A stretch of DNA of 64,000 nt from a virus. A program made the position numbers and the translations under genes. The notes beneath the pieces were generated by a model, which saw nothing but the letters and a program-made list of their open reading frames with translations, had not been told where the DNA came from and did not search any database. The stretch spans positions 1 to 64,000 of the IMG/VR virus record IMGVR_UViG_3300043411_001639; one strand, given 5' to 3'. Shown here piece by piece: positions 16,226 through 55,200 of the stretch (position 1 is the first letter of the stretch; each line of letters starts with the position of its first letter).

Positions 16226-16266
16226 CAGGTTGTCAGTAGGGCAGAGTAACACGGGAGACACTAAAG

Positions 16267-43343: not shown

Positions 43344-43383
43344 CAGGTTGTCAGTCGGGCAGAGCAACAGAGGAACTAATTCA

Positions 43384-44088: not shown

Positions 44089-44405
44089 CTGAGTGTAGCA
44101 AGGCAACCAACCTGGAGACAAGAATCATGCAGGTAAACATCAAGCACGGTTACTGGACTTATCAGGGTTCTGTCAGTGATATTGGTGAAGTAACCAACGT
44201 CAAGGTGTTCAACGGTCGTGAACCTTATGTTTCTTCTGAAGAGGAGCTCACCGAAATTCAGGATCTTCTCTTCTCTGCTTCTAAGGGATCACGGTTTGCG
44301 GGAATGACCGTAACCCTGACCTAGAGAGGAAACAACACCATGAAGATGGCAACTGGTCCTCCCTGAACTAACAAGAACTCAAGGCTGATAGATATATAAA
44401 CACAA

Positions 44406-44887: not shown

Positions 44888-45109
44888 CTGAGTGTAGCAA
44901 GGGAGACAGACAAGATGACAAAAGAAAAGGAACTGGAAGTAGAGTGTACTTCATGTGGGTGTGAGCTTCTCATCACTCCAAGTCTTCAACCTGGAACTAC
45001 AAAGAAGGGACACTGTTGGTTTTTTGGTGAATATGACCCTGTTCTGATTCCTCTCGGTTCATATCTCTGTGACTTCTGCGAAGATCACTTTCATAGAGAT
45101 TAGATAGAC

Positions 45110-52549: not shown

Positions 52550-52729
52550 ATTGACACTCATAGTCTGAACAGTTAGGTGAACCCTTCAACAACCCAACGG
52601 AGCGTTTTCCTAACTGTTCAGGCAATGAACTACTGTCCGCGCTTCATTCATAGAGCGCCCGTCGTTGATTGCCTGAAACCCTCTCAAACCGGAATAACCT
52701 GGAATCTTTGGAAAACCCTAGAGGCAAAA
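52550..52729 (-). ncRNA. putative antisense-oriented structured RNA
   Basis: downstream of the only minus-strand promoter; hairpins CTGAACAGTTAGG/CCTAACTGTTCAG (52565-52621) and TTCAGGCAAT/ATTGCCTGAA (52617-52677). Confidence 0.55.
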
Positions 52730-52735
52730 CAGTTG

Positions 52736-52764
52736 ACACTAGCAGCTCTCACAGAGGGTTGCAA
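52736..52764 (-). promoter_or_regulatory. phage early promoter, minus strand
   Basis: reverse complement reads TTGCAA-CCCTCTGTGAGAGCTGC-TAGTGT. Confidence 0.85.
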
Positions 52765-52780
52765 CAGAGAAGTTTCATCT

Positions 52781-52796
52781 AGCAACCTCCGTGCCA
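52781..52796 (-). promoter_or_regulatory. sigma54 (RpoN) -24/-12 box
   Basis: minus strand TGGCACGGAGGTTGCT, perfect TGGCACG-N4-TTGC. Confidence 0.75.
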
Positions 52797-52802
52797 AAAC
52801 TG

Positions 52803-52821
52803 AGATTAGCTGAACTAATCT
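52803..52821. promoter_or_regulatory. palindrome with CTGAA core (type A) at the divergence centre
   Basis: AGATTAG-CTGAA-CTAATCT. Confidence 0.7.
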
Positions 52822-52826
52822 AGCTG

Positions 52827-52855
52827 TTGCAACCTCTCTTGGAACCTGCTAGTGT
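52827..52855 (+). promoter_or_regulatory. phage early promoter
   Basis: TTGCAA-17-TAGTGT. Confidence 0.85.
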
Positions 52856-52906
52856 CGGGTTGTCAGGTGAGGGATAGCAGGGCAGAACGAACGAAGGAAA
52901 AAAACC

Positions 52907-53050
52907 ATGATGGAACTCTCGCTCAACTTCTCCGTTTCTCTGGAAACCATCACGGGCTTCACGCCGGTTTTCGTGAGCATCATGGCCGCGTGTTTCGTCA
53001 TGGGAGCGTCTCTCCGGTTCCTGGTGTGCAAGGTCCGCGCCAACTTCTAG
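52907..53050 (+). CDS. small membrane peptide (47 aa)
   Basis: MMELSLNFSVSLETITGFTPVFVSIMAACFVMGASLRFLVCKVRANF; own promoter, AAGGA RBS; not in ORF track. Confidence 0.6.
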   Translation: MMELSLNFSVSLETITGFTPVFVSIMAACFVMGASLRFLVCKVRANF

Positions 53051-53070
53051 AAGTTAGCTGAACTAACTTC
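53050..53070. promoter_or_regulatory. palindrome with CTGAA core (type A)
   Basis: GAAGTTAG-CTGAA-CTAACTTC. Confidence 0.7.
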
Positions 53071-53075
53071 GGGTG

Positions 53076-53104
53076 TTGCAACCTCTGAGAGAACCTGCTA
53101 GGGT
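53076..53104 (+). promoter_or_regulatory. phage early promoter (leaderless)
   Basis: TTGCAA-17-TAGGGT; ATG 53111. Confidence 0.85.
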
Positions 53105-53110
53105 AAGAGC

Positions 53111-53221
53111 ATGAAAAAGGCGAACAAGGGCAAGCGGTGGAACAAGCGGGAAAAACGCCGCAACGAATCGCTGGACGGTCGCAAGCAACGGCGCAAGTTT
53201 CTCGCGAGTCTCACTGACTGA
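53111..53221 (+). CDS. 36-aa highly basic peptide
   Basis: MKKANKGKRWNKRENARNESLDGRKQRRKFLASLTD; leaderless start; not in ORF track. Confidence 0.6.
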   Translation: MKKANKGKRWNKREKRRNESLDGRKQRRKFLASLTD

Positions 53222-53222
53222 C

Positions 53223-53238
53223 TGGCATAGAGGTTGCA
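53223..53238 (+). promoter_or_regulatory. sigma54 -24/-12 box
   Basis: TGGCATAGAGGTTGCA. Confidence 0.7.
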
Positions 53239-53253
53239 ACGGAAAACCAACTG

Positions 53254-53282
53254 TTGCAACCTCCCCGAAAGGGTGCTAAGGT
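53254..53282 (+). promoter_or_regulatory. phage early promoter (tRNA pair)
   Basis: TTGCAA-17-TAAGGT. Confidence 0.85.
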
Positions 53283-53309
53283 AGAAGAGTAGGTAACAGA
53301 AGGAAGAAA

Positions 53310-53392
53310 GCTCTAGTGGCGGAATGGTAGACGCGGGGGTTTCAAAAACCTCTTCCCGCAAGGGAGTGAGAGTTCAAGTCTCTCTTGGAGCA
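53310..53392 (+). tRNA. tRNA-Leu(CAA)
   Basis: GCTCTAG/TTGGAGC, GGGGT-TTCAAAA-ACCTC, TCCC-GCAA-GGGA variable arm, GAGAG-TTCAAGT-CTCTC. Confidence 0.92.
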
Positions 53393-53435
53393 CAAAAGCC
53401 ACAAACGGCGCGGCAGTGTCGTTGGCTTGTCTCTT

Positions 53436-53508
53436 GCAACGGTAGCTCAACTGGCAGAGCATTCGGCTTTTAACCGAAGGGTTGAGGGTTCAAGTCCCTC
53501 CCGTCGCA
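53436..53508 (+). tRNA. tRNA-Lys(UUU)
   Basis: GCAACGG/CCGTCGC (one mismatch), GCTC/GAGC D stem, TTCGG-CTTTTAA-CCGAA, GAGGG-TTCAAGT-CCCTC. Confidence 0.9.
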
Positions 53509-53515
53509 CCGTGGT

Positions 53516-53531
53516 CGGCACCAGTCTTGCA
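53516..53531 (+). promoter_or_regulatory. sigma54 -24/-12 box
   Basis: CGGCACCAGTCTTGCA (GG-N10-GC spacing kept). Confidence 0.6.
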
Positions 53532-53546
53532 AACAAAAAAAGGCTG

Positions 53547-53575
53547 TTGCAACCAACCCCGCAACCTGCTAGTCT
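53547..53575 (+). promoter_or_regulatory. phage early promoter
   Basis: TTGCAA-17-TAGTCT. Confidence 0.8.
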
Positions 53576-53610
53576 AAGAATGTAGCAGGAAACAACCAAC
53601 GGAGTCAAGA

Positions 53611-54003
53611 ATGGCAAAGCGCACGACGGAAGAAACCATCGCTCACACCGTCAAGGTCAAGGGTATCGTCGCCGACCGCTCCGGCATCAACAACACGCGT
53701 GGCGCGCGTGCGATCATCGCGTCGGAAGTCTTCGGCGTCTCGCAGACACTCCGCAACCACGGCGCCGCCGCCGTCTTCGCGCTCCGCAACGGGGATAACG
53801 TCGTGGTGCTGTCCCGCGTCGCCCGCAAGGGCCGCCCGCGCTGGAGGCAAGTCGGGCACGGATCTTCCACGGTCATCACGTTCGCCCGCGTGCTCTCCGG
53901 TGGCAAGGTTTCCAAGGTCGTCAAGGCGTCCACGCTTGCGGAGCTCTGCAACAAGGGTGCCCGCTACATCGGGACGCGCGCCAACCTCTACGGCAACGGC
54001 TAG
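53611..54003 (+). CDS. GC-rich basic hypothetical protein
   Basis: GGAG RBS, G/C-ending codons in this frame, own promoter. Confidence 0.8.
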   Translation: MAKRTTEETIAHTVKVKGIVADRSGINNTRGARAIIASEVFGVSQTLRNHGAAAVFALRNGDNVVVLSRVARKGRPRWRQVGHGSSTVITFARVLSGGKVSKVVKASTLAELCNKGARYIGTRANLYGNG

Positions 54004-54010
54004 AACCCGC

Positions 54011-54026
54011 TGGCACGAAGGTTGCA
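54011..54026 (+). promoter_or_regulatory. sigma54 -24/-12 box
   Basis: TGGCACGAAGGTTGCA, perfect consensus. Confidence 0.75.
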
Positions 54027-54051
54027 AGGGCAAGGCAAAGAAAACCCGCTG

Positions 54052-54080
54052 TTGCAACCTGTTTCGGAACCTGCTAGAGT
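54052..54080 (+). promoter_or_regulatory. tandem early promoter 1 of 3
   Basis: TTGCAA-17-TAGAGT. Confidence 0.85.
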
Positions 54081-54136
54081 CTGAATGTAAGGTGAGAGGT
54101 AGGGAAGACAGAGAACCGGAAGGAAAAAGAATCCGG

Positions 54137-54165
54137 TTGCAACCCTCCCCGAAACCTGCTAGAGT
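54137..54165 (+). promoter_or_regulatory. tandem early promoter 2 of 3
   Basis: TTGCAA-17-TAGAGT. Confidence 0.85.
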
Positions 54166-54214
54166 CAGAGAGTGAGAAAAGGAACGGGGCCAGAAACTAG
54201 ACGAAACAATCTGG

Positions 54215-54243
54215 TTGCAACCCTCCGAAGAGTCTGGTAAGGT
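54215..54243 (+). promoter_or_regulatory. tandem early promoter 3 of 3
   Basis: TTGCAA-17-TAAGGT. Confidence 0.85.
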
Positions 54244-54314
54244 AAGAGTCAGAAAGGGAGTCAGGGTGGCAATGTCGCCTAGCCCACTCCCAAACCAGGA
54301 AAGAAAAAAGAATA

Positions 54315-55034
54315 ATGAACTCCATCAACGCCACCTCGCCCGTCGTTTCCTCGGATTCCATCGTCGCCGACCCCAACGCCTCGCAGGAGAACACCATGCA
54401 CACCCCCGACAACTCCGCCGACGCTTCGCCCCTGTCCATGCGCCCCGCGGATCGCGCCGCCCGCGGCGAGTCCCTCACGCCCGACGAGGAGGGCGCGCTC
54501 GCGGCCAGCGACGCGGCGGAGTTCCTCGCCTACCTCCGCGCACAGCGCGCGTACCTCGCCTCCGCGCTCGCGGCGGCGAAGGCCCCCAAGGTTCCGGGGA
54601 AGCGCGGGCCGCAGGGTCCCCAGCGCGGGAAGGTGGTCACGCTGGCCGACGGCCGGATGATGATCGTCGGCGCGGGTCTCGGCAAGCGGGCCGCGTTCAA
54701 TTCCGCGAAGGGTGCGCTCGGGGCGCGCGCGGAGCTCCTCCCCGGCGACGCGCTGAACATCGCCCTCGTGACGTTCGGGGCGGACGGGAGCGGCGTCCTC
54801 TACACCGTCAACGGTGTCGCGGGCGAGACGCCCCGCGGGAAGGGTTCGCCCGGTGTGTCGCTCTCTTGCACGCGGGCGGACAACGGCGAAGAGGTCGTGT
54901 TGTTTCCGACGATGGATTCCATCGTGGACGCGGTGTGCATCACGGGTTCCGCGGCGCTCCTCGCGGTGCTTCCGGTGCTTCAAGCGCAGAAGGTGCGCGC
55001 CGCGCGCGCAGCGAAGACGCCCGCCACGGTCTGA
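54315..55034 (+). CDS. very GC-rich Ala-rich hypothetical protein
   Basis: third codon positions almost all G/C in this frame; behind three promoters; possible internal start at MHTPD (AGGAG RBS). Confidence 0.8.
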   Translation: MNSINATSPVVSSDSIVADPNASQENTMHTPDNSADASPLSMRPADRAARGESLTPDEEGALAASDAAEFLAYLRAQRAYLASALAAAKAPKVPGKRGPQGPQRGKVVTLADGRMMIVGAGLGKRAAFNSAKGALGARAELLPGDALNIALVTFGADGSGVLYTVNGVAGETPRGKGSPGVSLSCTRADNGEEVVLFPTMDSIVDAVCITGSAALLAVLPVLQAQKVRAARAAKTPATV

Positions 55035-55062
55035 CGCCTCACCCGCCAGAATCCCACCTAAA

Positions 55063-55119
55063 GAAACCCCCCGCGACGACCCTAGAGAATAGGGAACCGT
55101 CCGGGGGTTTCCCCGTTTT
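55063..55119 (+). terminator. terminator-like hairpin
   Basis: GAAACCCCC/GGGGGTTTC stem with inner CCCTA/TAGGG, followed by GTTTT. Confidence 0.55.
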
Positions 55120-55184
55120 ACAACTTTGACCCCCTCTAGCCCCTGTACCCCCCCACCTCTACCTACCCGGACCCAGGAGGTGGT

Positions 55185-55200
55185 TGGCATGGAGGGTGCA
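55185..55200 (+). promoter_or_regulatory. sigma54-like box (one mismatch)
   Basis: TGGCATGGAGGGTGCA. Confidence 0.45.

Follow-up and report, generated by a model that had tools for sequence, protein, structure and literature searches.

We report a family of repeated sequence boxes that carry the -24/-12 consensus of bacterial sigma-54 promoters and that sit beside strong sigma-70-type early promoters in the DNA of a virus. The boxes lie between positions 52,736 and 55,200 of the window, which is the whole stretch of 64,000 nt analyzed here and makes up the first 64 kb of the linear, 156,732-bp IMG/VR virus record IMGVR_UViG_3300043411_001639 (CheckV completeness 43%). The record is AT-rich (32-39% GC) except for an island at 52-55.2 kb (~52-57% GC), and the boxes are found in this island, four of them each paired with a promoter and one as a promoter-less copy. 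We tentatively propose, with a confidence somewhat short of an even chance, that the boxes may be docking sites for the host's sigma-54 RNA polymerase, carried on mobile cassettes of the promoter-early stem-loop (PeSL) type. We observe the motif, its position, its enrichment, its conservation and the mobility of its cassettes; we infer that sigma-54 is the reader, and how it would act once bound. The boxes are as follows.

52796-52782, minus strand: box A, TGGCACGGAGGTTGC; perfect sigma-54 consensus; 17 bp upstream of a minus-strand -35 element
53223-53237, plus strand: box B, TGGCATAGAGGTTGC; 2 nt after the stop codon of a 36-aa open reading frame (ORF); 16 bp upstream of the -35 element at 53254
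53516-53530, plus strand: box C, CGGCACCAGTCTTGC; 6 nt after tRNA-Lys; 16 bp upstream of the -35 element at 53547; one base off the consensus
54011-54025, plus strand: box D, TGGCACGAAGGTTGC; perfect consensus; 8 nt after the stop codon of a 130-aa ORF; 26 bp upstream of the -35 element at 54052
55185-55199, plus strand: promoter-less copy of the box, TGGCATGGAGGGTGC; GTGC in place of TTGC; at a GC-rich/AT-rich junction

A sequence-only reading of this DNA had placed four boxes at 52781-52796 (minus strand) and at 53223, 53516 and 54011 (plus strand), with a weaker one at 55185; all four exist, and the weaker copy is present as well. Boxes A, B and D match TGGCAY-N5-TTGC in full and are the only ones to reach the maximum weighted core score of 14, with box C scoring 13. 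For the longer motif TGGCACG-N4-TTGC, boxes A and D match 11/11 specified bases and are the sole perfect sites in the 156,732-bp record. The GG-N10-GC layout is kept in all boxes, and the positions that vary between them are the N positions of the sigma-54 consensus. To our knowledge, sigma-54 holoenzyme is the only known reader of GG-N10-GC with this consensus. The site at 55185 is a member of the box family rather than a chance match, because it is identical to box A at 13/15 positions. Just past it, at ~55200, the GC content falls from ~57% to 33%; this copy looks like a truncated cassette, and the junction like a recombination scar inside a cassette.

The boxes occupy one kind of location. 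Boxes A-D are intergenic and start 2-8 nt after the preceding gene or tRNA, each with a co-oriented promoter downstream of it. The gaps between TTGC and the -35 element are 17 bp for A, 16 bp for B and C and 26 bp for D, and these equal the 15-16 and 25 bp first given once the W base is counted, so that four boxes do lie just upstream of co-oriented TTGCAA-17-TAnnnT promoters, as the sequence-only reading had stated. With C′ (below) counted, the gaps fall into two classes, 16-17 and 26-27 bp, which differ by one helical turn. The same reading saw no boxes at the promoters further left, and our scoring agrees: at the ~20 promoters left of 52.7 kb, the same-strand upstream box score is 9/14 or lower in all.

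The motif is concentrated beyond chance. TGGCA-N6-TTGC occurs four times in the record (313 kb, both strands), with three of these inside 1.3 kb. Dinucleotide shuffles of the island (n = 5000) contain a mean of 0.025 such sites and 0/5000 reach three, and ~0.07 would be expected from the actual island counts of TGGCA (8) and TTGC (54). Because this second expectation uses the real half-site counts, the excess outlasts the abundance of the TTGCA -35 motif, which had been raised as a possible trivial cause of the hits.

Related DNA supplies a comparison. A metagenome scan yielded two short relatives only, contigs L008 and L009, which cover the DNA upstream of a 239-aa island ORF; L009, the relative in which box C can be compared, is ~88% identical. 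Box B is unchanged in L009, and box D with its 26-nt spacer is 100% conserved in both contigs, where the 8 nt upstream of D and the promoter spacer have diverged. The homologue of box C in L009 (C′, TGGCATCAACCTTGC) keeps the core GGCA..CTTGCAA with its flanks replaced, and it lies exactly 10 bp farther from the -35 element than C, an indel that keeps helical phase; the L009 sequence that follows tRNA-Lys contains an insertion of 63 bp and has diverged in its other parts. Between the window and L009, boxes B, C and D together agree at 44/48 positions, compared with 278/348 other intergenic positions. This one sequence comparison is suggestive of box positions being conserved beyond other intergenic DNA. 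The -24/-12 match is exact, confined to an intergenic slot beside sigma-70-type promoters, and kept at its core in a relative with diverged flanks.

Pairing, dyads and other candidate readers

The boxes can also be described as parts of hairpins. In boxes A, B and D, the right half (AGGTTGCWA) is an inverted repeat of the -35 block TTGCAACCT, because GTTGCAAC is itself palindromic, and therefore box and -35 block can pair as a PeSL-typical stem-loop. Folding pairs the two in every box cassette, with a 13-bp stem and a z-score of -5.7 for B, a z-score of -2.6 for A and weak pairing for C, D and C′ (-1.3 to -1.9). One may suppose, then, that the box does no more than supply the 5′ arm of a PeSL stem-loop, with the -35 block as the 3′ arm, that the RNA or DNA hairpin acts as an attenuator, a read-through processing site or a recombination hotspot, and that TGGCAY was copied from one ancestor. 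Besides the stems of B and A, this explanation draws on the near full-strength -35 block, without a -10, that the opposite strand of B and D contains; on the obvious paralogy of A, B, D and the 55185 copy; on the whole-cassette indels among natural variants; and on the published ability of PeSL stem-loops to overlap the -35 element and serve as terminators (PMC2839356). However, TGGCAY does not vary, although the bases with which it is predicted to pair, at the start of the promoter spacers, are different in each cassette; the outer pairs are also weak. The stems of C, D and C′ are no better than those of many shuffles, and no U-tract follows the stems. Boxes C and C′ carry the bipartite core of A, B and D with other N positions, so that the motif arose or was kept at least twice. 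Given the constant TGGCAY with varying partners, and a core that persists in C and C′ without the shared N positions, the bipartite motif looks like a protein recognition site, and we consider it quite unlikely that a hairpin arm is all there is to the box.

The boxes were also considered as decayed inverted promoters. This candidate was rejected: B and D hold the -35 block, and the -10 scores are far below those of real promoters.

Two families of dyads lie directly upstream of early promoters and have the asymmetric core TTCAG/CTGAA in common. The dyad TTAGCTGAACTAA has three exact copies (43297, 52806 and 53054), and TTGTTTCAGACAA has five (37540, 40141, 40161, 43276 and 48754), with one more inside the L009 insertion; the two families could be PeSL-type stem-loops or operators of one protein. 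One of the TTAGCTGAACTAA copies is the palindrome at 52803-52821, at which the sequence-only reading let the cassette orientation flip. The palindrome is real, but it is not a unique pivot, because it is one of three exact dyads and is absent from a natural variant that lacks 52800-52819 (a 20-bp deletion, among the differences listed). The variant contigs come from wastewater, freshwater and one marine-labelled metagenome and are mosaic; their figures refer to the listed differences only, and we base no statement on box conservation on them.

That the dyads hold the same slot in other cassettes suggests a general regulator slot and leads to a further explanation, in which the box is the operator of another phage or host protein that reads the direct repeat TKGCA-N6-TTGCA and activates or represses the sigma-70 polymerase, its likeness to a sigma-54 site being coincidental. 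The quantised spacing to the -35 element, which puts the box center near -58 or -68, where upstream activators sit, fits this explanation, as does our finding neither an enhancer site nor an activator gene. Yet there is no known regulator family with this consensus, whereas the sigma-54 match is perfect at every informative position and the variable positions coincide with the N positions of sigma-54; no candidate regulator gene was found either, and the island ORFs are without family matches. A coincidental likeness is unlikely on this evidence, though it deserves serious weight.

Possible docking of host sigma-54 polymerase

If host sigma-54 polymerase does dock here, the upstream element in the four cassettes and the truncated copy would be a 16-nt site, TGGCAY-N5-TTGCW, that this polymerase reads. 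Because box and sigma-70 promoter point the same way, transcripts made by sigma-54 polymerase would begin ~40 or 50 bp ahead of the sigma-70 start and run into the gene that the sigma-70 promoter serves. The box could then be a second, signal-dependent promoter for its unit, since a stable closed complex fires only on the action of an AAA+ activator. In the 16-17-bp class, the silent complex would occupy the UP-element zone of the adjacent sigma-70 promoter and might damp or insulate that promoter; in the 26-bp class, the presumed geometry would put the closed complex one helical turn farther off. The units affected would be one ORF-less leftward transcript, the tRNA-Leu/tRNA-Lys pair and two GC-rich ORFans. 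The boxes have what is expected of sigma-54 promoters, namely the consensus with GG and GC exactly 10 nt apart and an intergenic position co-oriented with a transcription unit. They do not form perfectly overlapping sigma-54/sigma-70 pairs of the glmY type, as the predicted starts lie ~40/50 bp apart.

A further site in the island has the GG-N10-GC layout. It lies at 53423-53438 (TGGCTTGTCTCTTGCA, 13/14), overlaps the first tRNA-Lys bases and has the same sequence in L009. A promoter is improbable here, because the predicted start would lie inside the tRNA.

Several observations weigh against docking by sigma-54 polymerase. Boxes A, B, D and the 55185 copy have the N positions RRAGG in common, which marks them as paralogues, and consequently they do not count as independent samples. 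The TTGCWA half equals the palindromic -35 core of the phage itself and can alternatively be explained as a hairpin arm. Spacing in helical phase with the sigma-70 promoter would be expected if the factor on the box contacted sigma-70 polymerase, whereas an independent promoter needs no such phasing, and the quantised spacing would suit an activator of another kind equally well. No sigma-54 gene, domain of a bacterial enhancer-binding protein (bEBP; PF00158, PF14532) or convincing AAA+ ATPase was found in the 156.7 kb of the record, ~43% of the genome, and no shared enhancer-like k-mer or motif was found upstream of the boxes. Another natural variant joins 53050 to 53252 and so loses a 201-bp cassette with box B, yet it keeps the tRNA promoter. 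Ten capsid-similar kin records (50-64% identity) contain scattered, coding-looking TGGCA-N6-TTGC sites only, and the phage's promoter type is absent in 5/5 capsid-similar kin checked, although in both comparisons the fragments may lack the early region. The third-codon-position GC content (GC3) of the island genes, 0.83-0.90, and the tRNA set point to a high-GC host, and a -10 element of the TAGRRT style is also typical of Actinobacteria, a group that is not known to have sigma-54.

On the other side, the closest bacterial homologues of the MnmA protein belong to Acidobacteriota and Gemmatimonadota, at an identity of 35-41% that is too weak for naming a host, and rpoN is present in 5/5 genomes of these clades, which is a weak hint only.

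A bolder version of docking by sigma-54 polymerase makes the boxes the 'middle' promoter class of a group of T4-like jumbo phages that lack MotA and AsiA. A sigma-54 closed complex, pre-loaded beside each early promoter, would be fired either by an enhancer-independent phage AAA+ factor of the Htm type (described below), whose gene would lie in the part of the genome that the record lacks, or by a host stress activator that responds to infection. Certain units, among them the tRNAs and GC-rich takeover genes, would then keep running after sigma-70 -35 recognition is shut off and, because the box doubles as a stem-loop arm, the switch would travel with the mobile cassette. No AsiA or MotA domain was found in the record, by searches that had no positive control. 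We judge this version improbable.

Should host sigma-54 polymerase be the reader, T4-like phages would tie part of their early program to an enhancer-dependent host polymerase that can wait silently on DNA. This would be a control layer so far undescribed in this phage group and could explain gene timing in MotA-less relatives; the regulatory element would also be mobile, riding on the recombination cassettes that shuffle accessory genes. Should sigma-54 not be the reader, the cassettes would still place PeSL-type organization far outside the coliphages, with interchangeable upstream elements under selection.

Early promoters and the GC-rich island

The region at 52.7-55.2 kb looks like a hyperplastic GC-rich island of a T4-like jumbo phage, made of PeSL-type mobile cassettes. 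A cassette starts at the stop codon of the unit before it and contains, in this order, a short upstream element, an A-rich tract, a very strong early promoter of the sigma-70 type, a leader and, last, either a small gene or a pair of tRNAs. Apart from the boxes, the island and its borders hold the following features.

52736-52764, minus strand: leftward early-type promoter, partner of box A (-35 at 52764-52759, -10 at 52741-52736); the only leftward one, with no ORF behind it
52803-52821, no strand assigned: dyad AGATTAG-CTGAA-CTAATCT, the palindrome discussed above; PeSL-type stem-loop directly upstream of the -35 element of promoter 52827
52827-52855, plus strand: early promoter TTGCAACC..CCTGCTAGTGT; drives the 47-aa hydrophobic ORF
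52907-53050, plus strand: 47-aa hydrophobic ORF (promoter 52827)
53047-53104, plus strand: dyad TTAGCTGAACTAA at 53054 with the early promoter 53076-53104; drives the 36-aa basic ORF
53111-53221, plus strand: 36-aa basic ORF (promoter 53076-53104)
53254-53282, plus strand: early promoter; drives tRNA-Leu(CAA) and tRNA-Lys(UUU)
53310-53393, plus strand: tRNA-Leu(CAA) (promoter 53254)
53436-53510, plus strand: tRNA-Lys(UUU) (promoter 53254)
53547-53575, plus strand: early promoter; drives the 130-aa ORFan
53611-54003, plus strand: 130-aa GC-rich ORFan (promoter 53547)
54052-54243, plus strand: three tandem early promoters (54052, 54137, 54215); drive the 239-aa ORFan
54315-55034, plus strand: 239-aa ORFan (GC3 0.90)
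55063-55120, plus strand: strong stem-loop followed by a U-run, CCCCGUUUU (z-score -3.9)

Across the record, TTGCAA-17-TAnnnT occurs 28 times on the plus strand (26 of them at 2.7-54.2 kb) and once on the minus strand, at 52764. The promoters that partner boxes A-D have the co-oriented form TTGCAACC-N-TGCTAGAGT, and most promoter copies fit the longer consensus GTTGCAACC..(A)ACCTGCTAGAGTC, preceded by A-rich tracts and followed by a conserved leader. The promoter hexamers are identical at 59/60 positions between the window and L009 while the spacers diverge, and therefore the motifs behave like real promoters. Each -10 is followed by a shared 5′ leader of ~25 nt that comprises the first bases to be transcribed, ..CRGGTTGTCAGT.GGGCAGAG or ..CTGAGTGTAGCAAGG (for example at 16226-16250, 43344-43368, 44089-44105, 44888-44904 and 52856-52890), for which we know of no role. 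The leftward promoter at 52764-52736 faces a 13-bp inverted repeat, CTGAACAGTTAGG...CCTAACTGTTCAG, at 52567-52625 (fold z-score -1.6, modest in comparison with shuffles), and the minus strand of 52555-52764 is a candidate for a 100-170-nt non-coding or antisense RNA that opposes all other early transcription.

Within the early region, the promoter motif ends after 54243, and the stem-loop at 55063-55120 is likely the terminator that closes both the early region and the island. This arrangement bears on the sequence-only reading's view of the boxes as belonging to the earliest promoters, at the end of the DNA that enters first. The boxes instead stand at the downstream end of a 52-kb co-oriented early region, just before the terminator-like hairpin, and that part of the reading is not supported. 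The same reading also offered the idea that sigma-54 polymerase sites serve as a grip on entering DNA, by which the end that goes in first would be held or drawn in. Phage T7 pulls in its DNA using host polymerase at tandem early promoters, and the three tandem strong promoters at 54052-54243 recall this arrangement. However, the co-oriented early region has the island at its downstream end, before a terminator, with no physical genome end evident there, the record has no end repeats, and a closed complex that is unable to translocate would not pull DNA. We regard a grip on entering DNA as highly improbable.

The record encodes a T4-type major head protein, portal and tail sheath, and the nearest counterparts of its capsid protein are found in Flavobacterium phage immuto, Microcystis phage Mel-JY01 and uncultured huge phages. 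Its eight tRNAs read the codons AGA, AUA, UUA, UUG and AAA, and Shine-Dalgarno-like motifs are ~three-fold enriched. The acceptor stem of tRNA-Lys(UUU) has an A3-C70 mismatch in the window (53436-53510), compared with an A-U pair in L009 (283-357). The island genes (52907-53050, 53111-53221, 53611-54003 and 54315-55034) encode the 47-aa hydrophobic peptide, the 36-aa highly basic peptide and the two ORFans, with a GC3 of 0.73-0.90 versus 0.18-0.31 across the remaining genome. The 239-aa ORF has six close homologues (74-95% identical) and its variants differ mostly at every third base, which shows that it is under purifying selection.

Other searches of the island and for its relatives returned little. 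The island ORFs have no family matches, structure predictions are of low confidence (predicted local distance difference test score of 54 for the 239-aa ORF and 33 for the 130-aa ORF), an Rfam search recovered the two tRNAs only, and a simple promoter and terminator scan added nothing further. DNA searches of GenBank phages, near and distant, gave tRNA matches only. Scans of IMG/VR for the promoter, for the box with CTGTTGCAAC and for the box with the promoter gave nothing, or coding or chance matches only, and protein-based IMG/VR scans with the 239-aa ORF, its alignment and the neighboring kinase gave no relatives.

Comparison with known systems

The sequence-only reading knew of no comparable phage architecture. 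That view is not supported, as both PeSL cassettes (PMC2839356) and the sigma-54 dependence of phage YuA (PMC5053324; bioRxiv 10.1101/2023.10.13.562163) are published. Phage use of host sigma-54 is rare but published, and we found no published description of a sigma-54-type box within PeSL-type cassettes, in phase with sigma-70 promoters.

Htm (Gp204), an early protein of the T4-like Mosigvirus AV110, is structurally bEBP-like, lacks the GAFTGA loop and a DNA-binding domain, and is linked to sigma-54 as a hypothesis (bioRxiv 10.64898/2026.10.06.757011). In view of Htm, T4-like phages might supply a sigma-54-directed AAA+ factor of their own, but no such gene was found in the record's 156.7 kb. 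The development of Pseudomonas aeruginosa phage YuA is reported to depend on host sigma-54, and YuA has sigma-70-like and sigma-54-like promoters (Ceyssens 2008, cited in PMC5053324 and bioRxiv 10.1101/2023.10.13.562163). YuA resembles the present phage in being a phage without its own sigma-54 that has host-type sigma-54 promoter sequences beside sigma-70-type ones. YuA is, however, an unrelated siphovirus whose dependence is shown by experiment, whereas the boxes of the island, as candidate sigma-54 sites, lie on repeated mobile cassettes, in helical phase with sigma-70 promoters.

In bacteria, sigma-54 holoenzyme binds promoters in an inactive state and represses if its site overlaps another promoter (PMC4591121, citing Zafar 2014), and there are tandem or overlapping sigma-54/sigma-70 pairs (glmY, Reichenbach 2009; occlusion, Zafar 2014; both cited in PMC4591121). 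The island boxes resemble bacterial sigma-54 promoters in their exact -24/-12 consensus, GG-N10-GC layout and co-orientation with genes, and a box is close enough to its sigma-70 promoter for a bound closed complex to compete with that promoter. Unlike the bacterial promoters, the island has no enhancer, IHF-like site or activator that we could find. Unlike the bacterial pairs, its promoters are adjacent rather than overlapping (starts ~40/50 bp apart), and they lie on the cassettes of a lytic phage.

The closest likeness in layout is to the PeSLs of the T4-type phages phi1 and RB49, in which a strong sigma-70-like early promoter is combined with a tract rich in A/T and with a stem-loop inside or adjoining the promoter (Arbiol et al. 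2010, PMC2839356), and which precede ORFans in hyperplastic regions and mediate modular shuffling (PMC2839356). The island likewise has repeated, very strong sigma-70-type promoters, an A-rich tract upstream of the -35 element and a stem-loop in or next to the promoter, with strong folding statistics for B and A only; its cassettes precede small ORFans, and relatives differ by cassette-bounded insertions, deletions and replacements. It differs from the published PeSLs in that its stems have no U-tracts after them, and in being GC-rich within an AT-rich genome and carrying tRNAs. A further difference is that, in a subset of the island's stem-loops, the 5′ arm doubles as a full sigma-54 -24/-12 consensus.

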